The notes: a model not told the origin generated them from the letters alone. Shown: positions 35,904-53,193, counted from the first letter of the stretch. The stretch: 60,377 bases of DNA from an uncultured Pseudomonadales bacterium (GCA_964570365.1 CAZMXT010000005.1:1-60377); one strand, 5' to 3'. Translations and numbers: made by a program.

Positions 35904-36492
35904 CGATTGGCTTTACAGTAGAAGCAGTCTCCAATGCGGCAGCGCGATCAGCCTCTTTAACTTCAGAAAATGCTGCGTTAGCAGAATTTCTAATTTCAAC
36001 GTGAGGAGACTCTAGGAGTTTTGTTACTTCTTCAACTGTAAATTCATTCCAGTTTCGATTTCTAATTATTGCTTTAGCCAGTGCTCTGTCTAGATCATGT
36101 GCAAGGTTTTTCCTCCTAGTCAATATCAGCAACCGCTCTTTATTGGTAATTCCGCTGTCACTAGCAAATAGTAGATTGCTAGACATTATGAAGATAGCCT
36201 GAAGCAATACCGCCTTATCACGGCGTGCAATTCGGAGTACTTCTTTCATATACGGTAAAAAATGCTCTGGTCGTTGATGTATCGCAGCTAAGGCAGCATT
36301 TCTTTCTGTTGCATCTAAACTCTGAACAAGGTTAAGTAACTCTAAGGGAGATAATTCCGGACTAATCGATACTTCTTTTAAATTCACTTGCAAGCATTCC
36401 AACAATGACGCTACTACTACTCGCAAAAGGAACGGTCTACTTAAAAAAAACTCTGTATTGTAGTTCTGATGCTCAGCTTGGGTCATACTCAC
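35893..36492 (-). CDS. hypothetical alpha-helical (HEAT-repeat-like) protein
   Basis: 199-aa ORF starting 1 nt after the stop of the HNH gene. Segments such as LESPHVEIRNSANAAFSEV and LDATERNAALAAIHQ resemble HEAT/armadillo repeats. This is weak. Confidence 0.4.
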   Translation of the reverse strand: MSMTQAEHQNYNTEFFLSRPFLLRVVVASLLECLQVNLKEVSISPELSPLELLNLVQSLDATERNAALAAIHQRPEHFLPYMKEVLRIARRDKAVLLQAIFIMSSNLLFASDSGITNKERLLILTRRKNLAHDLDRALAKAIIRNRNWNEFTVEEVTKLLESPHVEIRNSANAAFSEVKEADRAAALETASTVKPIATS

Positions 36493-36493
36493 C

Positions 36494-36916
36494 TCAGCTT
36501 CTTACTGCAGGCTCTCTTAGAACTGAGTAATTTGGTAGCCCTTCTCTTTCTTCAGAACTTAACCGCTTCCATAGCGCAGCAAGGGCTTTAATATTATTTT
36601 CTTTAGATAACCCCAAGGTTCCATTTCCATGTCCATTAAAGTGTTGAAGGTAGTGACACTTTACGCAAAGAGTCATTCCATTATCTGTTTTGTCATAGAT
36701 CCTACTCTTTTTAAAATGGTTTCTGTGCGCAGCTTCCAATCTCTTGCTATTCTTACCCCCGCATTCTGTACATTTCCACTTATCTCTTTTTTTGATTTCC
36801 AAAGCTATGCTCCGAGAAAATGACCCTGTGGACAACCACAACGCCAAGACTATTGGTAAAGCAATTTCGCCCAAGTGAAGTAAAGCATCTCTGGAATTTT
36901 CCCATCGTTCGCGCAT
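36494..36916 (-). CDS. HNH endonuclease with N-terminal hydrophobic segment
   Basis: CTECGG...LEAAHRNH...NGMTLCVKCHYLQH (the HNH/CxxC...CxxH arrangement). Confidence 0.7.
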   Translation of the reverse strand: MRERWENSRDALLHLGEIALPIVLALWLSTGSFSRSIALEIKKRDKWKCTECGGKNSKRLEAAHRNHFKKSRIYDKTDNGMTLCVKCHYLQHFNGHGNGTLGLSKENNIKALAALWKRLSSEEREGLPNYSVLREPAVRS

Positions 36917-37018: not shown

Positions 37019-38896
37019 ATGTTTCTTTTACGTAAAGTTTTTGCGCTCTTCATTTTTGCTCTCAGCTTTTGTTTTCTTTTTTCTCAGTCAGTACGCGCAG
37101 ATGAGAACTTTGATTTATCTCTAACTTCAACCTTCACGGTCCAGAACAATGGCGTCACGACTGTAGCTCAAAAATTTACTCTTACTAATAAGACTCCAAC
37201 TCTCTTTGCCAAACAGTATGCTCTAGAGTTTGGCTCGACTCGCCTGAGAAATGTGCGGGTTTCTGATGAAAATGGAACTGTCCCTGCCAATATTACTGCC
37301 ACTGATAGTAAAACCAGTGTTGGCATTACGTTTAATGACATTATTGTTGGAGAAGGGAAGAACCGCACTTTTACTGTCCAGTTTGAAAGTGATGACATTG
37401 CGCTGATCAGCGGAAATGTGCTTGAGGTGTATATTTCCAAAGTCTCTGATATTGATAAGTACACCGATTACCAAGCCATACTACGGGTCCCCTCCCAGTT
37501 TGGCCAACCTGCTCGCGTATCTCCAGCGAACTATGCCATTTCTCAGGAGGGTGGGGCGACAGTTCTCAACTTTAATAACTTAAGAGGTCAAAGCATTTCA
37601 GCATTATTTGGTCAAAAGCAGGTCTTTGACTATAACTTGCGGTATCACTTACAAAACACTACCGGGAACGTCGGAATTGCTCAGGTAGCTTTGCCTCCAG
37701 ATACTAAAAGGCAAAAAGTAGAGTACTTAACTCTTGATCCACGACCACGCGAAATGAGTACTGATGCTGATGGAAACTGGATTGCAACCTACGAGATTGC
37801 GGCTGAAAAGGATCTGACTGTCAATCTGACTGGGAAGGTATCTATTTTTCTTGAGGACCAAGCCGATATATTCATCCCAGCCGCCACAAATGAGCATCTG
37901 AAGCCTCAGAAACACTGGGAAAGTAATAACTCAAAAATTCAAGAACTAGCCAGTACCCACCAAGGTCCTCGAGCTGTTTATGATTACGTGGTTGGACAAT
38001 TAAAGTATAACTATGAAAAAGCAAATGGGGCAGTCGAGAGACTCGGCGCATTGGGCGCACTGGACGATCCTGAAAACTCTGCTTGTCAAGAATTTACTGA
38101 TCTTTTCATTGCTGTAGCCCGAGCTCAAGGCATCCCCGCTCGGCGAGCCACTGGCTTTGCTTATACTGAGAACAGTCGGCTACGACCTCTTGGACTAGTG
38201 GAAGACGTATTGCACTCATGGCCGGAGTATTACGATCGTGAAAACCAGGCTTGGATTCCGATCGATCCCACCTGGGGAAATACCACAGGAGGAATTAATT
38301 ATTTTGACCAGTTTGACTTTAATCACATTGTTTTTGCTACGAATGGCGTCTCTTCGCAGCTTCCATACCCTGCGGGGACATATAAAAAAGCTGCGGAATC
38401 AACGAAAGATGTAGAGATTAGCTTTGGCAAAAGTATCGGAGAATCTCCGCTCGCAGTCACGATGAAAGTAAAACGCCAACCTTTCTGGTCAGCTCCCTTC
38501 CAAAATACGTATTTTCTGGTCGTTACAAATGAAGGAGGGCGCGCTTGGTATAATGTACCTCTTACTTTAAGTGATCCTGCCAGTCTGGGGAGTATTACCT
38601 ATCCAACTAAGATTGATTATCTCTTGCCATTTCAAACCCGAGAGATTCCCTTTGCAGTAGGTGGTAGTTCGAGGTGGCAAAAACAACGCCTTACCTTGAC
38701 AGCATCTCTAGGCAGCTTATTATCTTCTCATGAGCTCACAACCGGTTTCCAAACCATCGAAGTCCTCCGCTCTGCACCCCTCAATCCAGTTGCCTTGGGC
38801 ACAGGTATGGTCATCTTTGCCCTTACTGCCGGGAGTCTATTGGTTTTTAGACGACCAAGACAACGTCCTGTACGTCGGCAAGGCCAAAAACCTTAA
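37019..38896 (+). CDS. secreted, C-terminally anchored transglutaminase-like cysteine protease domain protein
   Basis: Signal-like N-terminus. The transglutaminase core has an intact Cys-His-Asp pattern (ACQEFTDLFIAVARAQGIPARRATGF; HSWPEYY; IPIDPTWG). A C-terminal TM helix is followed by an Arg-rich tail. TAAAAT lies 6 nt upstream of the ATG. Confidence 0.8.
   Translation: MFLLRKVFALFIFALSFCFLFSQSVRADENFDLSLTSTFTVQNNGVTTVAQKFTLTNKTPTLFAKQYALEFGSTRLRNVRVSDENGTVPANITATDSKTSVGITFNDIIVGEGKNRTFTVQFESDDIALISGNVLEVYISKVSDIDKYTDYQAILRVPSQFGQPARVSPANYAISQEGGATVLNFNNLRGQSISALFGQKQVFDYNLRYHLQNTTGNVGIAQVALPPDTKRQKVEYLTLDPRPREMSTDADGNWIATYEIAAEKDLTVNLTGKVSIFLEDQADIFIPAATNEHLKPQKHWESNNSKIQELASTHQGPRAVYDYVVGQLKYNYEKANGAVERLGALGALDDPENSACQEFTDLFIAVARAQGIPARRATGFAYTENSRLRPLGLVEDVLHSWPEYYDRENQAWIPIDPTWGNTTGGINYFDQFDFNHIVFATNGVSSQLPYPAGTYKKAAESTKDVEISFGKSIGESPLAVTMKVKRQPFWSAPFQNTYFLVVTNEGGRAWYNVPLTLSDPASLGSITYPTKIDYLLPFQTREIPFAVGGSSRWQKQRLTLTASLGSLLSSHELTTGFQTIEVLRSAPLNPVALGTGMVIFALTAGSLLVFRRPRQRPVRRQGQKP
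38718..38723 (+). promoter_or_regulatory. -10-like element (TATTAT), 6 nt upstream of the uvrC ATG and embedded in the upstream coding region
   Basis: TATTAT at 38718-38723, a CTTCTC spacer, ATG at 38730. This is the same geometry as the other operon-first genes in the window. Confidence 0.4.
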
Positions 38897-40124
38897 GAAC
38901 CGAATTGCTTCTTATAAACAGTGGAATTCTACCTTTGGCAAAACTCGCCGGATGGTTTTTCAAGCGAAAGTGCTCAAACATGAAGTTCTAGAGAGCGAGT
39001 TGGAAGCATTGTTGGTCGAGGCTGAGCTGATCCGAACTCATCAGCCTCCTTTTAATATTCTCCTCAAAGATGATAAAAGTGATTTATACGTCAACATTAC
39101 TGATGAAAAATTTCCTCGGGTCATAACTATCCGCAAAAAAGAAGCTGAGAAGCTGCGCGTGCAGGGAACCACCTTAGGTCCTTTTCCGAGTGCCTATACG
39201 CTCAAAGAAGTGTTGGGAATTGCGCGACGAATTTTCCCCTTTTGCACCGGACCCCGCACTCCTAACTATGGCACTTCCGCCAACTCTCCTTGCTTCCACT
39301 ACCATCTGGACCAATGTCCTGGGGCGTGTATTGGACTCATCTCAGTGGAGCGATACCGAGAAACCATCTCAGAGCTAGTCCTGTTTCTGAAAGGCAAGAA
39401 ACGAAGCGTGGTCAAGCAAATTGAAGCAGAGATGACCAGCGTCTCAGAAAAGGAAGAGTTCGAGTATGCTGCCAAACTCCGAGACCGAGTTGAGTCAATC
39501 AGGTCTGTAACCGAAAAAAAAGTTCGTCTCAAACCTGATCTCCAAATGCCACGCTTAAAAGAATCTATTCGGGCTGAAGGTATCATTCAGCTCCGCCGAA
39601 TTCTCTGCAAACACATGCAGTTACCGAAAACCTACCCACTGACCCGCATCGAAGGCTACGACGTGAGTAACATTCAAGGTACCAATGCAACCGTCGCTCA
39701 AGTCACCTTTATTAATGGCTCACCAGCCAAGGAACACTATCGGCTCTACAACATTCGGACAGTACAGACCCCTAATGACTACGCCATGCTCCAAGAAGCA
39801 ATTGTGAGGCGCCAGAACCACCTAGAGTGGGGCATTCCTAACCTGCTGGTTATTGATGGGGGGAAGGGACAGCTACGAGCTGCACTGAAAGTCTGGAATT
39901 GGAGCGTTCCAGTAATTTCGTTGGCCAAAAAACCAGATCGCGTAATTATTCCTCTTTTAAAAGTGGAGAAGGACAAAGACCCCCTCGTTGGTCTAGAGTA
40001 TCAGGAAATAAGCTTGCCCGAACAACATCCTGCACTGACACTCTTACAACAAATTCGCGATGAGTCCCATCGTTTCTCGAAAAAACAACATACACGCTTG
40101 CGAACTAAAGCAATGATGGAATAA
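38730..40124 (+). CDS. uvrC: excinuclease ABC subunit C (short form, no C-terminal helix-hairpin-helix domain)
   Basis: GIY-YIG (PGVYWFLDDQDNVLYVGKAKNLKNR), a Cys cluster (CFHYHLDQCPGAC), a UVR domain (FEYAAKLRDRVESI), and the endonuclease domain (EGYDVSNIQG, IDGGKGQL, IRDESHRF). The protein ends shortly after this last motif. A TTG at 38790 is an alternative start. Confidence 0.85.
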   Translation: MSSQPVSKPSKSSALHPSIQLPWAQVWSSLPLLPGVYWFLDDQDNVLYVGKAKNLKNRIASYKQWNSTFGKTRRMVFQAKVLKHEVLESELEALLVEAELIRTHQPPFNILLKDDKSDLYVNITDEKFPRVITIRKKEAEKLRVQGTTLGPFPSAYTLKEVLGIARRIFPFCTGPRTPNYGTSANSPCFHYHLDQCPGACIGLISVERYRETISELVLFLKGKKRSVVKQIEAEMTSVSEKEEFEYAAKLRDRVESIRSVTEKKVRLKPDLQMPRLKESIRAEGIIQLRRILCKHMQLPKTYPLTRIEGYDVSNIQGTNATVAQVTFINGSPAKEHYRLYNIRTVQTPNDYAMLQEAIVRRQNHLEWGIPNLLVIDGGKGQLRAALKVWNWSVPVISLAKKPDRVIIPLLKVEKDKDPLVGLEYQEISLPEQHPALTLLQQIRDESHRFSKKQHTRLRTKAMME

Positions 40125-40131
40125 TGATGAG

Positions 40132-40494
40132 ATGGGAATTATTAAGTCCTTTATAATCACTGGCATTGCTATCTTTGTTCTGGCCCGGTTACTGCCTTCA
40201 GTCAGTTATCTGAACTTGACTACGTTGATTGTGGCAAGTATTGTCCTGACTCTCTTGCAGAAAATTGTCCGCCCAATTCTCAAAGTACTATTACTGCCAA
40301 TCAACATTATCACTTTGGGTCTTTTTTCCTGGATCATTAATGTGATCATTCTCTGGCTGCTGATTGCTCTTGTACCAGGCTTCCACATTGACCCAGTTAA
40401 TTTTTTGGGACTCCAGTTAGGACCCTTTATGAGCTTAGTTTTTGTTTCTCTTGTCCTAGGCTTCATTCAGTCTGCTGTAGATATTGTTATCTAG
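40132..40494 (+). CDS. DUF360 / phage-holin-4_2-like small membrane protein
   Basis: 120 aa with four predicted TM helices. The N-terminus MGIIKSFIITGIAIFVLARLLPSV is typical of the YvlD/DUF360 family. Confidence 0.6.
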   Translation: MGIIKSFIITGIAIFVLARLLPSVSYLNLTTLIVASIVLTLLQKIVRPILKVLLLPINIITLGLFSWIINVIILWLLIALVPGFHIDPVNFLGLQLGPFMSLVFVSLVLGFIQSAVDIVI

Positions 40495-40525
40495 GATCAC
40501 TTCACCGTCTTTGCGTAGACCGAGG

Positions 40526-40531
40526 TATAAT
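40526..40531 (+). promoter_or_regulatory. -10 element (TATAAT), 6 nt upstream of the ATG of the 7TM gene
   Basis: CCGAGG-TATAAT-ATAGTT-ATG (ATG at 40538). No Shine-Dalgarno sequence. Confidence 0.5.
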
Positions 40532-40537
40532 ATAGTT

Positions 40538-41518
40538 ATGAAAAAACTGGTGATTAGCAGCATTTTTTTACTCATCTTCGGCCTTGGTTTGAGCCACACT
40601 TTGTCAATCCAAGCTCAAACCCCCCGCAGGTCTCCTCTGGTCGCTACAGACACTGCTTCCTTGATCGCCTCACCTTCTGCTGATGCTTCGCAGAGCGCTA
40701 CCGCTACCGAGACTGCTGGACTAGCCACGCCTTCTGCTGAGACTCAACAAAGAATTCAGGAACGCACTGATAAAGACATTACTGAAACTACCGGTAAAAG
40801 CCGAGATAAGCTCGTTCAAATTCTCGATGAGAACCCAATCGGTTCCTTTTCTTGGTATAACTTTCTACAGCATGGTATACGTCGAGCGATTGAGCGCGGT
40901 CTACCCGCTAATATCGTGGTCTTAATCCTGCTTTTTCCAGTTATTACCTCAGTCATTTCTTTTTCTCGGCATATCATTGGCTTGAAAGGCTTTGGTGTCT
41001 ATACCCCTGCAGTCTTGTCTGTCGCCTTTGTCTCGACTGGGATTATTAACGGCCTGGCACTCTTTCTGATTATCTTGATCTCAGCCATTGTCACTAAGGC
41101 CGCTATTAAACATCTCAACCTTCAGTATCTACCACGCACTGCCTTGCTTCTCTGGGGAGTTTCGATCTTTGTCCTGGCTATCTTGATTGGAATGGCGTTG
41201 CTCCCTCCAAATATTTTGCCTTCTTTCAGTCTTTTAACAATTAATATTTTTCCACTATTAATTATCATGTTGTTGACTGAGAACTTTATGGAATCTCAGT
41301 TATCTGGAAGTCAGTCAGAGGCGCAGCAATTAACCTTAGAAACCTTAATTATTGCAACCTTGTGCTCGCTGATTATTGGCTCAGCTATTTTCCAACGATA
41401 CGTTATCTTGCAACCTGAGTTAACGCTGATCGCAGTAGCGATTTTAAACATTGCCGTAGGTCGCTATTCCGGCTTACGGTTTATGGAGTGGTTGCGCTTC
41501 CGGTCAGTGATCGAGTAA
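40538..41518 (+). CDS. 7TM membrane protein of the '7TM usually fused to inactive transglutaminase' type
   Basis: Signal peptide, then an Ala/Ser/Thr-rich extracytoplasmic linker, then seven hydrophobic helices. FSRHIIGLKGFGVYTPAVLSVAF and the C-terminal VGRYSGLRFMEWLRF match my recollection of the 7TM_transglut family signature. Confidence 0.6.
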   Translation: MKKLVISSIFLLIFGLGLSHTLSIQAQTPRRSPLVATDTASLIASPSADASQSATATETAGLATPSAETQQRIQERTDKDITETTGKSRDKLVQILDENPIGSFSWYNFLQHGIRRAIERGLPANIVVLILLFPVITSVISFSRHIIGLKGFGVYTPAVLSVAFVSTGIINGLALFLIILISAIVTKAAIKHLNLQYLPRTALLLWGVSIFVLAILIGMALLPPNILPSFSLLTINIFPLLIIMLLTENFMESQLSGSQSEAQQLTLETLIIATLCSLIIGSAIFQRYVILQPELTLIAVAILNIAVGRYSGLRFMEWLRFRSVIE

Positions 41519-41525
41519 ATCACCT

Positions 41526-42812
41526 ATGCCAAAAGCTAGAGATATTTTGGGCATGAATGCTCGCAACCAGTTATATACCTCGCTGAACTCAACCTCAGCC
41601 AAGCGTTTTGGTACCTCCAAGTACGCCACTAAAGTCCTCCTCGAAAATAAACATATTCCCACTGCGAAAGTATTTGGTATTTTTGGCACGCTGGAAGACG
41701 TCAATGATTTTCCTTGGACTGACATGGAAAAGGACTTTGTGGTCAAGCCATCGAATGGCAATGCAGGCAAGGGTATCTTGATTTTCCGCCGTCAGGAGCC
41801 AGATAAGAATCATTGGTTAGATGCGATTGGACGACGAGTCAGTTTGGACGAGATTAAGCTGCATTGCGCTGATATTTTAGATGGGCAGTACAGCACCTAC
41901 GGCTCACTACCCAACGTCATTGTCGAGGAACGGGTCCCAATTCACACCAAGTTTCTCAAGTATGCCCACAAAGGCACACCAGATGTACGGGTGATTGTTT
42001 ATAACCACGTACCGGTGATGGCGATGCTTCGCTTACCCACCCCTCAATCTGAAGGACGAGCCAATTTACATCAAGGAGCAATTGCGGTGGGAATTGATAT
42101 GTTCTCAGGAGTTACTACTTTTGCAATTACTGGTAACGGCAAAACCATCACTACCTTGCCAGAGAGCAAACGGAAACTGAATGGTCTGAAAATTCCTCAC
42201 TGGAAACAGGCCTTAATTATTGCCATTCAGGCGGCTGACGCTGCTGGACTAGTCTTCTGCGGCGTAGATCTTTTTATCCACGAAGAAAAAGGCCCACTCA
42301 TAGTAGAACTCAATGCCAACCCTGGCTTATCTATTCAGTTAGCGAATCAGTCTGGACTACGTCGACGGCTGGAGCGCGTTACTGATTTGAATGTGCTGAA
42401 TCCTGAGCATGGAGTCAAAATTGGTCAAGCTTTATTTGCTGAGACTTTTTCCGACAAGATCAAAGCTGAAGATGGATTACTCATTATTTCTCCTTTTGAA
42501 GAGATCACCTTGTATGGAGAAAATAAACAAAAAAGTACTGATCTGGCACTAATCAATACTGGTCGCTTTCGGAGTGCAATTTCCAGTGACTTAGCGAAAA
42601 AGATTGGCCTGATTGAGCTGAACGATTTTCTGTGGTTCCAGCAAGAAAAAGAAGAAGGTAGAGTCCCGGTCGTGCAGGTTGCGTTTCGCCTACATGACCG
42701 CCGCTGTACCACAGCCATGATCGTAACCAAAAAATTAAATAAAACCAAACATCAAATTGAAATCGGCAGACATGATCTAACTGGCTTTTTGGTTGGAGAA
42801 GAAACAGCATGA
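41526..42812 (+). CDS. alpha-L-glutamate ligase-like ATP-grasp fused to a C-terminal retropepsin-like (RimB/'ATP-dependent zinc protease') domain
   Basis: ATP-grasp motifs: VVKPSNGNAGKGILIF, VIVEERV, DVRVIVYN, NLHQGAIAVGID, CGVDLFIHEEKGPLIVELNANPGLSI. The C-terminal ~115 aa (ISPFEEITLYGENKQKSTDLALINTGRFRSAISSDLAKKIGL...VAFRLHDRR) resembles the RimK-associated aspartic-protease-like domain. Confidence 0.7.
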   Translation: MPKARDILGMNARNQLYTSLNSTSAKRFGTSKYATKVLLENKHIPTAKVFGIFGTLEDVNDFPWTDMEKDFVVKPSNGNAGKGILIFRRQEPDKNHWLDAIGRRVSLDEIKLHCADILDGQYSTYGSLPNVIVEERVPIHTKFLKYAHKGTPDVRVIVYNHVPVMAMLRLPTPQSEGRANLHQGAIAVGIDMFSGVTTFAITGNGKTITTLPESKRKLNGLKIPHWKQALIIAIQAADAAGLVFCGVDLFIHEEKGPLIVELNANPGLSIQLANQSGLRRRLERVTDLNVLNPEHGVKIGQALFAETFSDKIKAEDGLLIISPFEEITLYGENKQKSTDLALINTGRFRSAISSDLAKKIGLIELNDFLWFQQEKEEGRVPVVQVAFRLHDRRCTTAMIVTKKLNKTKHQIEIGRHDLTGFLVGEETA

Positions 42813-43756
42813 GCGTCATCCAAAAACTCACTCCACTAAATCTCAATGACGAGAAGGAAAAGTTTTTTGCTGACTTCACCTATAATCCCCAATTTAGTTA
42901 TGCAGAAGTAGTTACTTCAGCTGAACTGATTCGTTGGGGCGCACCAAAGTCTAAGTTAATCGAATTTTCTCGAGCAGCACTACAGCAACGACCTAGTCTC
43001 AAAATTGTTCGTCACCCTGTAGAAAATAGTTTTATTACTGACCATTGCCGACAAGTCATTGCTGAAATTGGTATCACTGAAGAAATTGAAGTCGTTTTTG
43101 AGAAACAAAAAGTTACCCGCTGCAGTGTCAGTGGTCAAAAAATTTCCTTTAAAGACCCAGCTGAGTTTACAGATCTTCAAGAACTGGAAGGCACCCTAAA
43201 TCACGAACTGCAAACCCATCTTCTGCGAAATCTTAATCAGCAAAAACAAGACTGGAAACTAGATAGAGCTACGTATGATGCGCAGATTTTACGAACAGAG
43301 GAAGGCTTAGCCGTTTTGCACTCCTTACTCCCTTTAAAAGACCAAACTATTTGGCGACCATGTGCCTATTATTTAGCTGTTGCTTTAGCTCAGGAAAATG
43401 GTCTGGCAGACATGTTTGCAGAGCTGGTGCAGTTTGGCTTTGATCATCAGTTTGCGTGGAAGCTGTGCACTCGCACCAAGCGAGGCCAATCAGACACCTC
43501 TCAGCCTGGTGGAAACACCAAAGATTTATGTTACCTAGAAGGGGTAATTCAAATGTGTCGCTGGATTAAAGACCCCGAAAATGATCCTCGACAGCTCTAC
43601 TTCGGCAAGATCTTCATTGAAGAATTAGCGCAGCGATTGAGTACGGTAAAAACTAGCAATGTCTACTTACCTACATTCTTAGAAGATCTAGAATCGTACC
43701 GAAATATCGTGACAAAGATTGGCAACATTAACCACTTGGAGAACGCTTATGAATGA
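42809..43756 (+). CDS. DUF1704 / MATCAP-like zinc carboxypeptidase ('QEGLA motif' family)
   Basis: HExxH in LNHELQTHLLRN, followed by LRTEEGLAVLHSLL (the EEGLA/QEGLA signature). An ATGA start/stop overlap joins it to the upstream ATP-grasp gene. Confidence 0.7.
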   Translation: MSVIQKLTPLNLNDEKEKFFADFTYNPQFSYAEVVTSAELIRWGAPKSKLIEFSRAALQQRPSLKIVRHPVENSFITDHCRQVIAEIGITEEIEVVFEKQKVTRCSVSGQKISFKDPAEFTDLQELEGTLNHELQTHLLRNLNQQKQDWKLDRATYDAQILRTEEGLAVLHSLLPLKDQTIWRPCAYYLAVALAQENGLADMFAELVQFGFDHQFAWKLCTRTKRGQSDTSQPGGNTKDLCYLEGVIQMCRWIKDPENDPRQLYFGKIFIEELAQRLSTVKTSNVYLPTFLEDLESYRNIVTKIGNINHLENAYE

Positions 43757-44723
43757 TGCAAGTATTAGTTCAAAAATTATGATGGAAGAAGCCACCAAGC
43801 GAGGAATTGAGTGTCATATCTTTGATGATAAAAAAACAGTGCTGATGAAAAAAGATGGAGTGAGTTGGTTCACCCGCGGAGCAAGAACTTCACTTCAATC
43901 TTCAATTGGCAAAACTATCGCAGACAAAAAGCAGCTAACCAAAAAGATTCTGTTGTACTACAACTTACCAACTGCAAAGTATGTTCAGGTAAATAAAGTT
44001 GACCAGCTAGATACTGTTGCTGAGCTCAGTTTCCCAGTCGTAATGAAGCCATTGGATGGGAACGGTGGCAGAGGAGTAGTCGTCGGAATTCCAGATTTAG
44101 AATCAGCCAAACAAGCCTACCTAAAAAGTAACGAACCCATGTTGTTTGAAGAGTTACTCACTGGAACTGAGTACCGAATTACCTGTGTGAATTACCGATT
44201 TGTCGCTGCAACATATCGGAAAGCCGCCTTTGTGACTGGCGACGGGACTTCGACTGTCCAGCAATTAATCGATCAGAAAAACTCCCATCCATGGCGAGGT
44301 GAAGGACACGAATCATTTTTGACGAAAATCAAAGTCGATGAACTTGTAATAAGTTACATGCAAGAACAAGGCTTTACGATTGACAGTGTTCCATCAAAAG
44401 ATCTTGAAGTTCATCTCCGCAAAACAGTCAACCTTTCTACTGGCGGCGAGGCTTGGGACATGACAGATGAAGTCTGCGAAGAAAATAAACAACTCTTCAC
44501 TCAAATCGCCAAAGTTTGTGATCTCAACCTGATCGGCATTGATATGATGTGTGAGTCACTCAGTACACCAATAGTTAATCAACCTACTGCTGGCGTGGTA
44601 GAAGTGAATGCTGCCCCAGGACTTCGGATGCACCACTACCCAATTCAAGGGGAGCCACGCAATGTGGCATCAGCAGTACTAGATATGGTTGAAGCTCATT
44701 ACTTTCCAAAGCAAGTTGCTTAA
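43749..44723 (+). CDS. cyanophycin-synthetase G-domain-like ATP-grasp ligase, paralogue 1
   Basis: VVMKPLDGNGGRGVVVG, VTGDGTSTVQQLIDQKNSHPWRG, NLSTGGEAWDMTDEV, VVEVNAAPGLRMHHYP. It overlaps the upstream stop by 8 nt. Confidence 0.8.
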   Translation: MNDASISSKIMMEEATKRGIECHIFDDKKTVLMKKDGVSWFTRGARTSLQSSIGKTIADKKQLTKKILLYYNLPTAKYVQVNKVDQLDTVAELSFPVVMKPLDGNGGRGVVVGIPDLESAKQAYLKSNEPMLFEELLTGTEYRITCVNYRFVAATYRKAAFVTGDGTSTVQQLIDQKNSHPWRGEGHESFLTKIKVDELVISYMQEQGFTIDSVPSKDLEVHLRKTVNLSTGGEAWDMTDEVCEENKQLFTQIAKVCDLNLIGIDMMCESLSTPIVNQPTAGVVEVNAAPGLRMHHYPIQGEPRNVASAVLDMVEAHYFPKQVA

Positions 44724-44728
44724 TAATA

Positions 44729-45616
44729 ATGCTTTATCAACAATTTGAACTAACTGTTGCTCACTATCCCACACTAGACTCGGTAATAAAAGCTGAGCTA
44801 TCAAATGCTGATATTGTACAGATTGACCAGCATATTTTTGAGGGGATTTATCACTCAGATCAGCTGAACTGGAAAGGTGATCTGACTTTTTTTGAGAAGC
44901 CAGAAGATTTTGTACGTTCAGAAAAAGAACGTAAAAAACTCAGCCAATCTCGTGATTTTTTCTTAGCCCAAGGGTACACGTTGGAGGTAAAAGAAGTTGA
45001 TGAAGCTGCCAGCCAAGCCTTTGCTCAGCTTTATAACCGGACTACCTTGAAAAAAAATCGAGCTATTGATTATGATGCTGAGTTATTAGTGAAACGGAAT
45101 GTTCGCAGCGGCACTCCAGTCTATCTTTTTGGCTTATATAAAGGACCTGAGTTGCTTTCTGGATTACTCGTCACAAAAGTGAAAGAGGATATGCGAGTCA
45201 TGTTTGGCGCTAAACTCAAATTTGATGAAGTTCGTGGTGGTATTGGAGGAGTTTTAGAAATGGAGCTACTGCGTTTTTGTTTTGAGCGCGGACTGAAAAG
45301 AATTAGTCACGGTATCTCCACCAATCCAGCAGGGTTTGTGGACAATGCTGGAATTTTTGAGTTTAAGAGCAGATATGGCTTCACCGCATTTCCGTATGGG
45401 GAGTGGCGCACTACTTTTGTCTTAAATCCCAAAGTTGCAATCAGCGACCTGGTCTTTCTCACTATTGTTGATAACGGGCTCTGCTATCAGGTACTCAGTT
45501 TGGAGCCTAAAAGTGATATAGCAAAGTATCGGACCCGCTTAGTCACAAATGTCCAACAACAAACTTTAGCTCACCATATCGAGCACTCACGAAGCTTCTT
45601 TCGACTACCATCATGA
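44729..45616 (+). CDS. Fem/GNAT-fold-like protein, copy 1
   Basis: FAQLYNRTTLKKNRAIDYD and GGIGGVLEMELLRFCFERGLKRISHG...GIFEFKSRYGF resemble FemAB/Acetyltransf_6-type proteins. It is clearly paralogous to the next gene. The assignment is tentative. Confidence 0.45.
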   Translation: MLYQQFELTVAHYPTLDSVIKAELSNADIVQIDQHIFEGIYHSDQLNWKGDLTFFEKPEDFVRSEKERKKLSQSRDFFLAQGYTLEVKEVDEAASQAFAQLYNRTTLKKNRAIDYDAELLVKRNVRSGTPVYLFGLYKGPELLSGLLVTKVKEDMRVMFGAKLKFDEVRGGIGGVLEMELLRFCFERGLKRISHGISTNPAGFVDNAGIFEFKSRYGFTAFPYGEWRTTFVLNPKVAISDLVFLTIVDNGLCYQVLSLEPKSDIAKYRTRLVTNVQQQTLAHHIEHSRSFFRLPS

Positions 45617-46380
45617 ACTTAGACTTACAACAGTGGCAACTTCGTCGTCCAGAGAAAATTCGCTGGCTCTACAACAGATCTGCACCAAATCTTTATGCCG
45701 CAATTAAAAGTCCTTCACTCAGGGCATTTCTACGACACACAGATGAGTACTTAGCTGCATATGAAATTACCTATGATGAGAAAGAGCTTACACAAGCTTC
45801 GTATAAAAATTGGTTAAAACACTATGCGAAAGTAATGATCGAAAAAAATTACGATGTGATTGCAAAACCTGAGTGGCTCAGCAAGAAGTGGGCGGAAGGA
45901 AAGGAAGTGAGGGGCTACTTCTATTACTATCAGGGAGAGTTACAGGGCTCACTTATCTATGCTAAAAAGGGGAATGAGCGAGTATATGCAGCTTACAAAA
46001 CCAGCCTCAAGATTCCAGAAATAAGCACCAAAAAACATGGCTCATTAGGAGCAATGATTGACCTTATCTTTCTAAGGGAGATGCTAGATCAACAGTTTCC
46101 CTGGATCTCTCACGGAAGTATGAGAAATGCTTTTGGGGTACTTAATACCTATGGAAATTTACGCTATAAACTAGATATGGGCTTTCAAGTTATTGCGGAA
46201 GCAGATACACCCTGGCTAAATTCGGTCCCACTTTCTCAAGAAAAAACTGTAGCTTTTTTTGGAGGCTCCCAGGAAAGTGATTCCCTAACTCTTTACGGTT
46301 ATTCTAAATCAGGAACTGGGCAACCAAACTGGGGAAGTGATACAATGGAAGTTACGCTCTTAGAGCAACCCAATGAGTGA
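45613..46380 (+). CDS. Fem/GNAT-fold-like protein, copy 2
   Basis: WLKHYAKVMIEKNYDVI and GSLGAMIDLIFLREMLDQQFPWISHG...GNLRYKLDMGF parallel copy 1. ATGA overlap with the upstream gene. Confidence 0.4.
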   Translation: MNLDLQQWQLRRPEKIRWLYNRSAPNLYAAIKSPSLRAFLRHTDEYLAAYEITYDEKELTQASYKNWLKHYAKVMIEKNYDVIAKPEWLSKKWAEGKEVRGYFYYYQGELQGSLIYAKKGNERVYAAYKTSLKIPEISTKKHGSLGAMIDLIFLREMLDQQFPWISHGSMRNAFGVLNTYGNLRYKLDMGFQVIAEADTPWLNSVPLSQEKTVAFFGGSQESDSLTLYGYSKSGTGQPNWGSDTMEVTLLEQPNE

Positions 46381-47575
46381 CGCTGATCCCTTTTATAGAC
46401 CTTCCGAAGAAATACTCCACAGCTATGCGGAGGTATTGGTGAAGTTTGCTTTAAACTCTGGAAAAGGCGTCCAGCCTGGGGAGGTAGTAGAGTGCATTTT
46501 TCCGGAAGTTGCTCAACCCCTGGCGCGAGAAGTTCACCGAATAATTCTGGAAGTTGGCGCTCATCCAATGATGCAGATGCAGTCACAATATTTTGAACAT
46601 GACTTCTATCAACTTAGTTCAGCAAAACAACTTGAATTTTTTCCTAAAGATTATTTGAAAGCAAAAGCTCAACTTATCTCACACGTTATTTACCTGATAG
46701 ATCCAGCCCATCGAGAACTACCCGCTGAAGTTCAGAATAATCTTTTAACCTTCCGTAAAAATAACCACCCCTACAAAGAATGGCTTTCAGTCAAAGAACT
46801 GGAAGAAAAATTTTCTTGGACAGTTGGAATTTGGGGAACAGAGGAAGCAGCTGAGCAGGCGCACATCTCATTGCAAAAGTACTGGGAAGAACTGATCATT
46901 GGGTGTTGCTTAGATACACCAGATCCGGTTGGAGTCTGGAGAGAAACTTTTCAGCAGCTTCACCAAACCTGTAAAGCTTTAGACGACCTAAAAATTGAGA
47001 GGTTGCATTTTTCTGGTGCGGACGTCAATCTAGTAGTCGAGTTAGGGAGTCACCGTCGATGGCTTGGTGGACGAGGCCGAAATATTCCTAGTTACGAAGT
47101 TTTTACTTCACCTGACTGGCGAAGTACTTCTGGCTGGGTACGTTCTAACCAAGATTTATATTATTACGGAGCAACGATCAAAGGCGCTGAATTTTACTTT
47201 ACAGATGGAGTCGTACAAGAAGCTTCCGCTGAAGTTGGGGGACATACTTTAGAAGTTCTGATTCAGAATCCTGGGATGAATAAGATTGGAGAGATTTCCA
47301 TGACAGATAAAAGAATTTCTCGCGTCCAACATGCTCTGGGGGTTACGCTATTTGATGAAAATATTGGAGGAGATTTTGGCAACTTTCACTTTGCATTAGG
47401 GAAAAGCTTTCCAGCCGCATACACAGGAAAATCTTTAGATGAACTGAGTGAGCTAGGCTTCAACCAAAGCGCACTCCACATGGATTTTGTCTCCACTTCT
47501 GATCGCGTCGTGACAGCCACATTACGAGATCAAACCAAAAAAATTATTTATCAGAATGGGATGTTTACTGTATGA
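46373..47575 (+). CDS. M29 (AmpS/PepS-type) aminopeptidase
   Basis: The N-terminus (LHSYAEVLVKFALNSGKGVQPGEVV) and the C-terminal GEISMTD...LFDENIGGDFGNFHFALG are typical of thermophilic-metalloprotease M29 aminopeptidases. Confidence 0.8.
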   Translation: MSDADPFYRPSEEILHSYAEVLVKFALNSGKGVQPGEVVECIFPEVAQPLAREVHRIILEVGAHPMMQMQSQYFEHDFYQLSSAKQLEFFPKDYLKAKAQLISHVIYLIDPAHRELPAEVQNNLLTFRKNNHPYKEWLSVKELEEKFSWTVGIWGTEEAAEQAHISLQKYWEELIIGCCLDTPDPVGVWRETFQQLHQTCKALDDLKIERLHFSGADVNLVVELGSHRRWLGGRGRNIPSYEVFTSPDWRSTSGWVRSNQDLYYYGATIKGAEFYFTDGVVQEASAEVGGHTLEVLIQNPGMNKIGEISMTDKRISRVQHALGVTLFDENIGGDFGNFHFALGKSFPAAYTGKSLDELSELGFNQSALHMDFVSTSDRVVTATLRDQTKKIIYQNGMFTV

Positions 47576-48675
47576 CAAATACTGATGCTTTGGACCTTCA
47601 CTACACAAAATTGAGCCCAAGGGGTGAAGTTGAAGGTTCATATATTACTCCCAGCACTCAACTTATTTTAAAGGCAGCTGAAGCATTGGGAGTCCGGTGG
47701 CGAGAGATTCCTGGAACGAGAATTTTTGAGTTGCAGTACAACGGTACGAACAAACTTTTTCGCTACCAGATATCGATTAACACAACAGATATAGGCTTCT
47801 ATACTTGCTTAGATAAAAGCGTCACTAATACTATATTAAAAGCAAATGAGATCTCGGTTCCCAATGGTTTTCACCTAGAAAAAACTGACACTGAAGAGTA
47901 CTGGCTAGAAGCGTTTCATAGTCTTACTAAGCCAACTGTGATTAAGCCAACTCATGGGAATAAAGGAATTGGCATCAGTGTTGGCGTCACAGAAGAGGCA
48001 GATTTTTTAGAGCGTGTTCGGGCAGCTTTTGCACTTTTTGAAAACGATTCGGAAGCAGGCGTAATCATAGAAGAACAATGCCAAGGGGAAGAGTTTCGCG
48101 TCATCGCTACTAAAGGAAAAGTGCTCGGAGTGCTTCAAAGAATTCCTGCGAATGTTGTAGGCGACGGAATTCATACAATTCAAGAATTGATTGCTGAAAA
48201 AAATACTCATCCATATCGAAATATTTTCGAGTCAAAGTTGTACCCTAAAATTAAAGCAGATGCCTTAACAGAAGAAATGCTACGTGAGCAGGGACTGAGT
48301 TTAATGAGCATTCTTGAGAAGAATTATCAAGTATTTCTACGGAAAGTTTCCAACATTTCGCAAGGTGGAGACTCAGTTGACTTGACTTCGCAAATTCACC
48401 CTACATTCGCTGAAGTGGCCAATAAAGTAGCAAATAGTCTTCCTGGTATTGACTTCATGGGTATTGATATTATGACCGCAGACATTCGCCAATCTGTTGA
48501 GCGATCTCCCTATCATGTGATAGAAGTAAATTCCTCACCAGGCTTTGATATCCACGAATTTCCAATGACTGGCAAACGGCAATTTATTGCGTTAGAATTT
48601 GTGCTACTAGCCTTTCCTGAGCTTCGACCGCGCTTAGCTACTATGACTACTGAACAACTAGAAAATCTCTATTAA
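47572..48675 (+). CDS. cyanophycin-synthetase G-domain-like ATP-grasp ligase, paralogue 2
   Basis: VIKPTHGNKGIGISVG, VVGDGIHTIQELIAEKNTHPYRN, NISQGGDSVDLTSQI, VIEVNSSPGFDIHEFP. ATGA overlap with the M29 gene. Confidence 0.8.
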   Translation: MTNTDALDLHYTKLSPRGEVEGSYITPSTQLILKAAEALGVRWREIPGTRIFELQYNGTNKLFRYQISINTTDIGFYTCLDKSVTNTILKANEISVPNGFHLEKTDTEEYWLEAFHSLTKPTVIKPTHGNKGIGISVGVTEEADFLERVRAAFALFENDSEAGVIIEEQCQGEEFRVIATKGKVLGVLQRIPANVVGDGIHTIQELIAEKNTHPYRNIFESKLYPKIKADALTEEMLREQGLSLMSILEKNYQVFLRKVSNISQGGDSVDLTSQIHPTFAEVANKVANSLPGIDFMGIDIMTADIRQSVERSPYHVIEVNSSPGFDIHEFPMTGKRQFIALEFVLLAFPELRPRLATMTTEQLENLY

Positions 48676-48699
48676 ATAAGTACCCTAAAAAAAATATCT

Positions 48700-49764
48700 G
48701 TGCAAAGAAAATACTACACACGTCAAACCGTTCGCGGGCCTCAATCAGATGAAGTTATGGGTGGAAGTGCCATCCTGACTTTACATGAAGCAGAGAAGTA
48801 CGGGATGACCACCGAAGAGATCCCAGATACCAAAATTTTTAAGATTACCTACAAAGATCAAGCTCAGTATTTTCGCGCCCAAAACCCTGCACAGACAACT
48901 GGCATTGCGTTTCAAGCATCAACCGATAAAAACATGGGGAGAAGCTTGCTAAAAAGAGCCGGCATCTCCATTTCTGAAGGATTCACGATTAAGAAAAGCG
49001 ATCCCGTGGAGTATTGGCTAGAAGTCTTTGCTGCTTTACAGAAGCCACTCGTAGTCAAACCTACGAATGGCACCCAAGGGCAGTCTGTTTTTATGAACGT
49101 GGCGGAAGAAGGTGCGTTTCGCACCGCGGTCAGAGTCTGTCTTCAGCATACGCTCCACATTTCAGCAGGAGCTGTCGTGGAAGAGATGTTTCAAGGCCAA
49201 GAATATCGTATCCTAGCGTCAGCAGCGAAAATTATTGGCGTCATTAATAGACGCCCAGCAAATGTGGTCGGAGATGGAACTTCAACCATCACCCAACTTA
49301 TTGAACAAAAAAACAGTGATCCTCGCCGTGGTGATGACCCCAACGACGTTTTAGTAAAAATTAAAGTTGATAATCACGTCACTTCACATATTGAAAGTCA
49401 AGGTTTGACACTGGAGTCTATCCCAGAAAAAGATCTGCGGGTCTTTTTGCGGCTCAACTCCAATATCTCAACAGGAGGAGACAGCCTGGATGTTACCGAT
49501 CAAGTTCATCCGACTGTAATTGAAGTTGCGCAGCGAGCAATGGCAGCTTTTCCAGGGCTAGCATTTGCCGGCATCGACTTCATGACCAAAGATATCACTG
49601 CGCCCCAAACCCCCGACTCATATGTGATCGTAGAAGTGAATGACTCACCTGGCTACTCAATTCATGATCAACCATACGAAGGCAAGAACAGACATGGCGC
49701 CTATGAGTTTTTATGCGTAATCTTTCCACAGCTGAGAAATGATTTCCCCCAACCATTGGAGTAG
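48700..49764 (+). CDS. cyanophycin-synthetase G-domain-like ATP-grasp ligase, paralogue 3
   Basis: VVKPTNGTQGQSVFMN, VVGDGTSTITQLIEQKNSDPRRG, NISTGGDSLDVTDQV, IVEVNDSPGYSIHDQP. The GTG start is inferred from colinearity with paralogue 2, so the start is uncertain. Confidence 0.78.
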   Translation: MQRKYYTRQTVRGPQSDEVMGGSAILTLHEAEKYGMTTEEIPDTKIFKITYKDQAQYFRAQNPAQTTGIAFQASTDKNMGRSLLKRAGISISEGFTIKKSDPVEYWLEVFAALQKPLVVKPTNGTQGQSVFMNVAEEGAFRTAVRVCLQHTLHISAGAVVEEMFQGQEYRILASAAKIIGVINRRPANVVGDGTSTITQLIEQKNSDPRRGDDPNDVLVKIKVDNHVTSHIESQGLTLESIPEKDLRVFLRLNSNISTGGDSLDVTDQVHPTVIEVAQRAMAAFPGLAFAGIDFMTKDITAPQTPDSYVIVEVNDSPGYSIHDQPYEGKNRHGAYEFLCVIFPQLRNDFPQPLE

Positions 49765-49790
49765 TTTGTCCCTCAAGGTACAATACAAGA

Positions 49791-50954
49791 ATGTTACTTC
49801 AAGGTAAAAGGGTTTCCGTCTCAGGCAAGCGCGTCGCGCTTGGCATGTCTGGTGGAGTAGACTCTTCTGTTTCTGCGCATTTATTGGTAGAAGATGGCTA
49901 CGAAGTGACAGGCGTTTACCTCGAGTGTTGGCGAGCTCCAGGATGCCGGACTGAGGAAGATCGCAAGGATGCACTAGATATCTGCCTCCAACTTGGCATT
50001 CCTTTTACCGTGCTCGATTTTAAGCAAAAGTACAAAGAGACAGTCGTCGAGTATTTTTTTCGCGAGTACGAGCAAGGCAAAACTCCAAACCCCGATGTGC
50101 TGTGCAATAAAGAGATTAAGTTTGGACTCTTCTATGATTGGGCAATGGAGAATAATTTTGAGCATGTCGCTACCGGGCATTATGCCCAAGTTCTAGAGAG
50201 CAGAGAAGCACCTGGCCAAAAAGTCCTTCTTACCAGCCAGGACGAGCATAAAGATCAAACGTACTTCTTATATCGGTTACGCCGAGAACAACTTGAGCAT
50301 ATTTTATTTCCAATTGGACACTTAGAAAAAAGCCGGGTTCGCCAGATGGCGGTGGAGCGAAATCTAGCGGTGGCTTCAAAAAAGGATTCTGTCGGCATCT
50401 GCTTTATTGGAGACATTAACGTTCATAATTTCCTCAAAGAGCGACTGGGCGAAAAACCTGGTCCTGTCATAGATACCAAAGGAACGGTAATTGGGGAACA
50501 TAATGGCCTTTGGTTCTTTACCGTCGGTCAACGTCACGGATTCAGTATTTTCCCCAAGAGCATGGTCAAAAAGGCCGATGGGAGTGAGATCGATCGCCAG
50601 AATATTCCACCATTTTATGTGATTCGTAAAAATGCCTCGAAAAATGAGCTGGTGGTGGGGTTTGGGAAAGAAACGTTCCAGACTGAGTTTGATCTTAGCG
50701 ATATTCACTGGATCTATGAGGCACCAAAAGAGGGAGAAAGTGTACTGGTGCGGATTCGACATACTGGAAAACTGCTTGGGTGCCAGCGTAGTTCTGAAGG
50801 AGTGCCAAACGGCAAGACAGTTGTGAAGCTTATCGAGCCCACACAAGGTATTGCAGAAGGCCAATCCGCTGTTTTTTATCGAGAGTACTCTCACTCAGGG
50901 GCTATCCCACTGTACGAGTGCTTAGGTGGGGGAGTAATTGGTTTTGATTCTTAG
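49791..50954 (+). CDS. mnmA: tRNA 2-thiouridine(34) synthase
   Basis: PP-loop ALGMSGGVDSSVSA, CNKEIKFG, ATGHYA, KDQTYFL. TACAAT lies 6 nt upstream of the ATG. Confidence 0.92.
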   Translation: MLLQGKRVSVSGKRVALGMSGGVDSSVSAHLLVEDGYEVTGVYLECWRAPGCRTEEDRKDALDICLQLGIPFTVLDFKQKYKETVVEYFFREYEQGKTPNPDVLCNKEIKFGLFYDWAMENNFEHVATGHYAQVLESREAPGQKVLLTSQDEHKDQTYFLYRLRREQLEHILFPIGHLEKSRVRQMAVERNLAVASKKDSVGICFIGDINVHNFLKERLGEKPGPVIDTKGTVIGEHNGLWFFTVGQRHGFSIFPKSMVKKADGSEIDRQNIPPFYVIRKNASKNELVVGFGKETFQTEFDLSDIHWIYEAPKEGESVLVRIRHTGKLLGCQRSSEGVPNGKTVVKLIEPTQGIAEGQSAVFYREYSHSGAIPLYECLGGGVIGFDS

Positions 50955-50995
50955 AGTGAACTCCTTGTATCATCAGAAAACTGAGAGGGCAGTCT

Positions 50996-51704
<709 letters not shown>

Positions 51705-53184: not shown

Positions 53185-53193
53185 ACTGATATC

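Follow-up and report, generated by a model that had tools for sequence, protein, structure and literature searches.

A gene for a MATCAP-like (DUF1704 family) zinc carboxypeptidase lies directly behind the gene for an RloC-like ATP-grasp ligase in a 60,377-nucleotide (nt) stretch of DNA deposited under an uncultured Pseudomonadales bacterium (GCA_964570365.1 CAZMXT010000005.1:1-60377; the window, with positions counted from its first letter). We put at about 55% the reading that this carboxypeptidase is the replacement hydrolase of a Patescibacterial Rim/Rlo-type module, where it would probably trim glutamate-rich chains; in such a module an ATP-grasp peptide ligase would be combined with a peptidase and a seven-transmembrane (7TM) protein. 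The strongest evidence is that, across related loci, a separate peptidase complements the state of the protease site in a retropepsin-fold domain predicted at the ligase C-terminus, and for this reason we take MATCAP as the probable hydrolase of the module. The genes concerned are the following (lengths in amino acids, aa).

40484..41518, plus strand: RloB-like 7TM membrane protein (7TM_transglut, PF14402, 81.2 bits against a cut-off of 25, aa 145-342)
41526..42812, plus strand: RloC-like ATP-grasp ligase, alpha-L-glutamate-ligase-like, 428 aa (PF14397, TIGR02291)
42468..42809, plus strand: retropepsin-fold C-terminal domain of this ligase, predicted pseudo-protease (AlphaFold2, Foldseek, motifs)
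42809..43756, plus strand: MATCAP/DUF1704 zinc carboxypeptidase, predicted cytoplasmic, 315 aa, with HELQTH at nt 43202-43219 and TEEGLAV at nt 43295-43315
43749..44723, plus strand: stand-alone ATP-grasp ligase of the cyanophycin-synthetase G-domain type, 324 aa, accessory (TIGR02068, 310.9 bits)

Results

A degenerate built-in protease site goes with a separate peptidase gene

Relative to proteobacterial RloC, the Patescibacterial ligases carry about 110 additional aa. AlphaFold2, run with database homologues, modelled the fused C-terminal domain at a mean predicted local distance difference test score (pLDDT) of 79, and Foldseek matched this model in PDB to retropepsins only (Ddi1, P. fluorescens RloA (9G58) and Lpg0085 (2PMA), E about 2e-4). 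The domain carries the conserved motifs ALINTGRFRSAIS and IEIGRHDL, which resemble the retropepsin DTGA and GR(D/N) signatures, with Asn344 (nt 42555-42557) at the position of the catalytic Asp. Of 118 ligase homologues, 106 have Asn at this position, 7 His, 4 Asp and 1 Ser. Neither Pfam, at E values up to 10, nor a PDB profile search detected a retropepsin domain from sequence, and its identity is predicted from fold comparison and motifs only. In the characterized systems, RimB and RloA are polyglutamate endopeptidases that partner the ligases RimK and RloC; RimK synthesizes polyglutamate and is stimulated by RimB, and active fusions of RimB with RimK are known (PMC11957791, PMC12239564). 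The D48N mutant of RloA is catalytically inactive (PMC12239564).

At four related loci (L082, L098, L099 and L133), a 125-aa stand-alone retropepsin occupied the MATCAP slot right after the ligase. The copy that was translated, from L082, carries an intact DTGA, and the rest of the cassette was unchanged in L082, L098 and L099, L133 being too short to show it. Results showed that 94 non-redundant ligases followed by MATCAP were all degenerate at the fused site (Asn in 79, Lys in 7, His in 1, DTK in 6 and DTGR in 1), whereas the more divergent ligase loci that have no separate peptidase kept the canonical DTGA in the fused domain in nine cases out of nine. A dead built-in protease thus comes with a separate peptidase next door, usually MATCAP and rarely a stand-alone retropepsin.

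The DTGA-keeping ligases sit behind a 7TM gene in a divergent branch (L152-L156). In one of these loci (L153, 7281-10225) the ligase gene runs with 4 nt of overlap into genes for an HlyD-type adaptor, an ATP-binding cassette (ABC) ATPase and a MacB-type permease, and this HlyD plus MacB-type ABC exporter suggests that the ligase product may be exported.

The carboxypeptidase belongs to the MATCAP family and the flanking genes are ATP-grasp ligases

A first-pass annotation of the window had placed the 315-aa protein in the DUF1704/MATCAP family by the signature pair HELQTH and TEEGLAV, and the searches agreed with it. Translation of the open reading frame put the two motifs at aa 132-137 and aa 163-169 of a protein lacking a signal peptide. 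The protein matched PF08014 (MATCAP) in Pfam at 66.0 bits (gathering cut-off 27, E=3.8e-18) and human MATCAP/KIAA0895L (7Z5G) at E=1.9e-33 in a phmmer search of PDB sequences. The human alignment covered both zinc motifs, a KRGQ-x-DTS-x-PG block and an N-terminal NPQF-x-Y; HELQTH aligned with HEIGTH, and TEEGLAV with TEEGLA, the third zinc ligand being the Glu in (Q/E)EGLA. The metal-binding residues, the loss of which the annotation had named as a possible objection, are retained, with H132, E133, H137, E164, E165, G166 and A168 invariant in a 29-sequence alignment. Against the curated family model the protein scored 74.9 bits, below the cut-off of 338.65, and proteobacterial members stood at 41-65 bits in pairwise comparison. 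Judged by its sequence, this is a genuine MATCAP-family zinc carboxypeptidase whose catalytic motifs are intact, and it looks catalytically competent.

The same annotation had described overlaps at both ends of the gene between two ATP-grasp ligases, and this arrangement was confirmed. The MATCAP start overlaps the stop of the upstream ligase gene as ATGA (42809-42812), and the ATG of the downstream ligase at 43749 overlaps the MATCAP TGA (43754-43756) by 8 nt, an alternative TTG start at 43719 being possible for the latter gene in the mechanical list of open reading frames. The upstream ligase matched PF14397 in Pfam at 200.8 bits (cut-off 31.4), and its best NCBIfam match was TIGR02291 (229.9 bits, aa 4-291, cut-off 314.2). 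It scored 57.8 bits on the RimK family model TIGR00768, for which the NCBIfam cut-off is 143.4, and its best solved relative in a profile search of PDB was RimK, weakly, at 24.8 bits. Because the TIGR02291 and RimK scores lie below their cut-offs, a specificity of this ligase for glutamate is an extrapolation. The downstream ligase matched TIGR02068 over model positions 159-470 only, with its 310.9 bits set against a full-length cut-off of 850, and its PDB matches were CphA1 (7LG5, E=1.5e-58), CphA2 (8FXH) and GshAB (3LN7).

Nearly all ligase C-termini read VGE with 1-3 more residues behind it, frequently E or Q, as in LVGENE, LVGENQ and LVGETE (ligase homologues P0087-P0206). The tail of the ligase in the window is VGEETA (42795-42809); such an acidic tail recalls the acceptors of RimK and TTL, and self-modification is conceivable.

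A literature search for DUF1704, QEGLA, COG3930 and MATCAP found no assigned biochemical function for any bacterial MATCAP/DUF1704 protein. The QEGLA protein owes its name to a reporter screen. A QEGLA-motif (DUF1704) gene of Photobacterium damselae was induced 27-fold at low salinity (PMC10308900), which echoes the hypo-osmotic phenotype of the rlo operon, and a Pseudoalteromonas QEGLA gene (L081) adjoins the betIBA osmoprotectant genes; either may be coincidence.

The upstream ligase is the conserved partner of MATCAP

To survey the neighbourhood, we scanned one genome per species with a 10-sequence alignment as query, which gave 73 loci whose open reading frames were searched with the window proteins, and we scanned metagenomes starting from the ligase, which gave 66 loci with enough downstream sequence. 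The MATCAP-like homologues were almost all proteins of about 315 aa from Patescibacteria. The RloC-like ligase stood directly 5' of MATCAP in 60/63 species loci, the 7TM protein directly 5' of the ligase in 56/59, and a small protein with four transmembrane segments (4-TM) upstream in 45/56. In the metagenomes MATCAP was the next gene after the ligase in 52/66 loci, with an intervening ligase gene in one more. Neighbouring starts and stops overlap or abut, and the ligase-MATCAP cassette is among the most conserved non-housekeeping cassettes in the sampled genomes.

The side 3' of MATCAP was variable. A cyanophycin-synthetase-like ligase directly followed MATCAP in just 4/59 species loci. Between MATCAP and mnmA some ATP-grasp gene (RimK-like, cyanophycin-synthetase-like or ATP-grasp_4) was present in 23 of 47 loci. 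In 14 of the 47, bona fide RimK-like ligases, which score 86 bits against the E. coli enzyme, lie shortly 3' of MATCAP; the interval also held Fem-like genes (7/47 loci) or truB (13), and was empty in about a dozen. The idea, drawn from the count of 4/59, that extra ligases 3' of MATCAP are rare was rejected, as other ATP-grasp families occupy the interval in about half of the loci. Variable genes were inserted after MATCAP and, save in L103, never between it and the ligase.

With 60/63 species loci and 52/66 metagenome loci in agreement, the conserved pair is the upstream RloC-like ligase and MATCAP. A conserved ATP-grasp linkage, whose absence the first-pass annotation had named as a refutation, is present in relatives, and its ligase/carboxypeptidase pairing holds for the upstream gene; its two-ligase sandwich does not generalize and is the elaboration of one lineage.

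DUF1704 proteins were joined to ATP-grasp ligases a second time

A distant DUF1704 clade comprises proteins of 629-720 aa that score 270-304 bits on the Pfam model and 41-65 bits against the Patescibacterial proteins. In this clade a GshB-like ATP-grasp gene followed in 6/6 loci with enough flank, and a formylglutamate-amidohydrolase-like gene preceded in 4/4 loci with upstream sequence. The loci (L073-L077, L080) come from Nitrosomonas, Gammaproteobacteria, Sinorhizobium meliloti pSymB (1096994-1108763) and a planctomycete, and thus span Beta-, Gamma- and Alphaproteobacteria and Planctomycetes. Because this distant clade is linked to a different, GshB-like ATP-grasp, the DUF1704 family has come together with ATP-grasp ligases on at least two occasions; the linkage is not universal in the family. 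The long protein has an uncharacterized N-terminal extension of about 280 aa, and a plasmid search returned 129 matching records, 79 of them from Sinorhizobium, with 112 covering at least 80% of the protein.

These data bear on whether MATCAP is merely a general cytoplasmic peptidase whose place beside the ligase was inherited with the gene order of a compact genome. We consider such an absence of functional coupling very improbable. It would account for the equal synteny of uvrC and mnmA and for the solitary MATCAP homologues, but not readily for the separate link of the distant clade to another ATP-grasp family, for a retropepsin taking the MATCAP slot, or for separate peptidases whose presence complements the state of the fused site; the overlapping coding regions suggest translational coupling as well.

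Animal MATCAPs are the nearest relatives outside the Patescibacterial type

A HMMER search of 1.84 billion representative proteins returned 1386 relatives, of which the best 82 were Patescibacterial-type proteins and the next were animal MATCAP1 and MATCAP2. The top animal relative was from starfish (139.6 bits, aa 3-312), followed by marsupial, shark, coelacanth and others. Pairwise scores were 105-161 bits between Patescibacteria and animals, 41-65 between Patescibacteria and Proteobacteria, and 35-54 between animals and Proteobacteria; by these scores, the Patescibacterial protein resembles animal MATCAP more than it does the proteobacterial QEGLA family. In a crude neighbour-joining tree built without alveolates (100 bootstraps), animals grouped in 100/100 replicates, and animals, Patescibacteria and a gut-bacterium protein together in 99, while the Patescibacteria alone were never recovered as a clade. 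This suggests, as a lead rather than a result, that animal MATCAPs may branch from within the Patescibacterial group, and it hints at a bacterial origin of animal MATCAP by gene transfer. An origin of the eukaryotic TTL/TTLL ligases from the same cassette found no support, TTL and TTLL7 being remote matches only.

Other genes of the locus

The plus-strand genes are tightly packed from 37019 to 50954. In total the cluster holds four ATP-grasp ligases, two Fem-like transferases, a carboxypeptidase and an aminopeptidase behind two membrane proteins. Besides the genes given above, it contains the following.

37019..38896, plus strand: transglutaminase-core protein, 625 aa (Transglut_core, 56.9 bits in Pfam), with N- and C-terminal hydrophobic segments
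38730-40124: uvrC, between the transglutaminase-core gene and the membrane-protein genes
40132..40494, plus strand: small 4-TM membrane protein, Phage_holin_4_2, 120 aa (PF04020, 74.7 bits)
44729..45616, plus strand: Fem-like tandem-GNAT protein, 295 aa, accessory (AlphaFold2 mean pLDDT 88, Foldseek)
45613..46380, plus strand: Fem-like paralogue, 255 aa, accessory (BLASTP against the 295-aa protein, E=8e-11, 25% identity)
46373..47575, plus strand: M29 aminopeptidase, 400 aa, accessory (Peptidase_M29, 262.7 bits in Pfam)
47572..48675, plus strand: second ATP-grasp ligase of the cyanophycin-synthetase G-domain type, 367 aa, accessory (TIGR02068, 259.8 bits)
48700..49764, plus strand: third ligase of this type, 354 aa, accessory (TIGR02068, 274.1 bits)
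49791-50954, plus strand: mnmA

The best NCBIfam match of the 7TM protein was the RloB model (NF052267), over positions 315-506 only and at 67.7 bits against a cut-off of 900. Its N-terminal 149 aa matched no family, and the inactive transglutaminase domain of RloB is not present. The translated transglutaminase-core protein contains Cys, His and Asp motifs (SACQEF, HSWPEYY and IPIDPTW) and is presumably located at the cell surface; its gene was upstream of the cassette in 39/51 species loci, with uvrC intervening. It is a possible extracellular component, and its membership of the system is uncertain. The gene uvrC itself was inside the cassette in 42/56 loci (L001-L079), with uvrA just upstream and mnmA following; a functional reason for its place there is not apparent.

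Foldseek matched the model of the 295-aa protein to FemX (E=7.8e-9), the aminoacyl-tRNA-dependent peptide synthases Sbb17/Sba18, MprF and L/F-transferase, over an E range of 8e-9 to 1e-4, and on these matches both paralogues are predicted to be aminoacyl-tRNA-dependent transferases. Neither paralogue had a family match by sequence; for the 295-aa protein the Pfam match to Acetyltransf_6 was below threshold (14.3 bits, cut-off 22), and just 14 homologues of it were found. The M29 aminopeptidase was never the best match in other sampled related loci. No gene within the cluster, with its intergenic gaps below 30 nt, fits a precursor peptide, and a promoter and terminator scan gave counts close to the shuffled expectation.

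Beyond mnmA, a decayed GDP-fucose-synthase-like (NAD-dependent epimerase) gene occupies 50995-51700, before a PKD-domain gene. Its N-terminal Rossmann part is in one frame, and an open reading frame at 51120-51674 is in another, with a premature stop and in-frame sequence beyond; relatives have no gene at this position. The PKD-domain surface protein is followed by a sortase (51922-53880), and the pair, kept in L001, L003, L078 and L079, may have nothing to do with the cassette or may belong to a neighbourhood of surface-protein genes. On the minus strand, two genes (35893-36916) encoding an HNH endonuclease of 140 aa and a protein of 199 aa that matches no family sit between uvrA (32820-35903) and the transglutaminase gene. 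They look like a small insertion, because in L001, the closest relative, uvrA directly adjoins the transglutaminase gene.

Discussion

Proposed function of the module

In the mechanism we propose, the RloC-like ligase would draw on ATP to extend a peptide or protein acceptor at its C-terminal carboxylate with amino acids, most likely glutamate residues that would form an alpha-linked acidic chain. The fused retropepsin, a putative RimB/RloA homologue with Asn344, would probably bind the chain or regulate the ligase, as RimB stimulates RimK. MATCAP would supply the lost hydrolysis by taking residues off the C-terminus, so that the chain is limited, reset or recycled. More speculatively, the 7TM and 4-TM proteins could tie the system to the membrane and may pass the product to the envelope, where the transglutaminase-core protein could act on it. 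An accessory layer that varies among lineages, here three CphA-G-like ligases, two Fem-like transferases and the M29 aminopeptidase, may add or trim other residues.

Several observations weigh against this proposal. The core ligase falls below the NCBIfam equivalog cut-offs, and its glutamate specificity would be extrapolated. The predicted retropepsin fold comes from a model of medium confidence (pLDDT 79) with Foldseek E values near 1e-4 and a null PDB profile search. The division into DTGA and degenerate sites follows a few clades and may reflect only two or three evolutionary events. Unrelated genes (uvrC and mnmA) are equally syntenic in these small genomes, and adjacency alone is weak evidence for that reason. 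Finally, MATCAP homologues of Woesearchaeota (DPANN-type archaea) and of one gut bacterium have unrelated neighbours with no adjoining ligase, and a classic QEGLA gene carried by a Pseudoalteromonas plasmid stands by itself.

The first-pass annotation had favoured the reversible addition of a C-terminal amino acid to a protein or peptide, with control of polymer length as its alternative; the former would be a cycle in which a single residue is added to and removed from a specific protein as a TTL/MATCAP-like regulatory mark. Polymer length control would fit at least as well, because Rim/Rlo relatives make and cut poly-alpha-glutamate and MATCAP-family enzymes deglutamylate: besides taking off Tyr, MATCAP1 and MATCAP2 trim polyglutamate chains (PMC10499314). 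We regard the single-residue cycle as unlikely. The protein does fall in the subfamily of the animal detyrosinases, all the flanking ligase classes (RimK, cyanophycin-synthetase G domain, GshB) extend C-terminal alpha-carboxylates, and it may be speculated that the VGE-x-E/Q tails of the ligases serve as acceptor. But the tightly spaced cluster holds no candidate target or precursor gene, the characterized relatives are processive polyglutamate enzymes, and the many accessory ligases and aminoacyl-tRNA transferases better suit a stepwise peptide assembly. The constant 7TM partner, together with the ABC exporters of related loci, would suggest an exported or envelope product.

A further alternative is the building or editing of a cell-envelope peptide (a peptidoglycan stem, a cross-bridge or an aminoacylated surface polymer) with MATCAP as trimmer of its cytoplasmic precursor, to which we give somewhat less credence still. 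The ligase belongs to a Pfam family named sugar-transfer associated ATP-grasp, the accessory ligases are weakly similar to D-Ala-D-Ala ligase and pseudomurein ligases, and rlo operon mutants have cell-shape and beta-lactam phenotypes (PMC12239564). The Fem-like aminoacyl-tRNA transferases in the cluster, and the transglutaminase-like exoprotein, PKD-domain protein and sortase conserved nearby, point in the same direction. Set against this, the cassette has no Mur ligase, glycosyltransferase or lipid-carrier gene, Fem-like genes occur in a minority of loci (7/47), and the retropepsin homologues cut polyglutamate rather than stem peptides.

Comparison with known systems

Rim/Rlo-type ligase-peptidase modules and the MATCAP family are already known. 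The closest arrangement is RloABC of Pseudomonas aeruginosa (mBio 2025, PMC12239564), where a PF14402 7TM gene directly precedes the gene for a TIGR02291-type ATP-grasp ligase, as it does here before a ligase resembling that type. The RloABC operon likewise includes a peptidase gene and a retropepsin-fold module; loss of rloA is toxic. RloA is a secreted, active endopeptidase with DTG, whereas the retropepsin here is fused to the ligase C-terminus, cytoplasmic, and has Asn at the catalytic position, the predicted active peptidase being the MATCAP metallocarboxypeptidase, an exopeptidase. Unlike its RloABC counterpart, the 7TM protein carries no inactive transglutaminase domain, and a gene two places upstream codes for a free-standing transglutaminase-core protein whose triad looks intact. 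The cluster here also includes additional ligases, Fem-like transferases and an aminopeptidase, and its host is a Patescibacterium.

RimK/RimB and the RimBK fusions (Pseudomonas, Desulfotalea; PMC11957791) likewise oppose an ATP-grasp alpha-L-glutamate ligase with a peptidase that removes residues, join ligase and retropepsin, and let RimB stimulate RimK. In RimBK, however, the retropepsin is active and N-terminal, and the Rim system targets ribosomal protein S6 and has neither a membrane partner nor MATCAP. The tubulin cycle (TTL/TTLL, MATCAP1/2 = TMCP1/2, VASH, CCP; PMC10499314) shares the peptidase subfamily (119 bits to human, 140 bits to starfish) and, as we infer for the bacterial genes, the logic of an ATP-grasp ligase that adds residues to acidic C-termini and a carboxypeptidase that removes them. 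It differs in that the bacterial system has no tubulin, its carboxypeptidase lacks the eukaryotic N-terminal extension, its partner ligases are of RloC, RimK and cyanophycin-synthetase types with TTL as a remote match only, and its genes form an operon associated with a membrane protein.

In the uncharacterized set of amidohydrolase, long DUF1704 protein and GshB-like ligase of Proteobacteria and Planctomycetes, a DUF1704 peptidase also adjoins an ATP-grasp ligase. That clade is distant (41-65 bits), its proteins of 629-720 aa have the N-terminal extension, and its ligase belongs to a different family, with an amidohydrolase gene added and no 7TM protein. The downstream ligase of the window is homologous to the G domain of cyanophycin synthetases CphA1/CphA2 that extends peptide C-termini (E=1.5e-58), but it is a stand-alone 324-aa domain without their N-terminal and Mur-like M domains.

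Literature searches found no paper on MATCAP paired with an ATP-grasp ligase or acting as the peptidase of such a module, and none on the pseudo-retropepsin fusion, the complementarity pattern or the nesting of animal MATCAP. PF14397 and PF14402 were reportedly defined by Iyer et al. 2009, who may have anticipated part of these findings.

Significance

The context of this locus gives a concrete hypothesis for the function of a bacterial MATCAP, namely that it trims, from the C-terminus, what an RloC/RimK-type ligase makes. For the Rlo system, whose product is unassigned despite strong osmotic, antibiotic and biofilm phenotypes, the loci amount to a natural experiment: the peptidase has been exchanged, and its predecessor has lost its activity. 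In the biology of Patescibacteria, the cassette probably yields a novel peptide.

The prokaryotic proteins found here to be closest to animal MATCAP are encoded next to peptide ligases. Tentatively, and with less confidence than we place in the hydrolase role, the findings can be joined: eukaryotic MATCAP may descend from a Patescibacteria-type trimmer of a glutamate-rich chain, an enzyme that displaced a retropepsin and acted on an envelope or osmotic-stress peptide. The ancestral chain would have been non-ribosomal and made at the membrane by an operon-encoded ATP-grasp ligase, and the displaced retropepsin would have left the pseudo-protease domain behind. If this is true, the product would be a peptide so far undescribed in candidate-phyla bacteria, and the add/remove logic of the tubulin code would predate tubulin.

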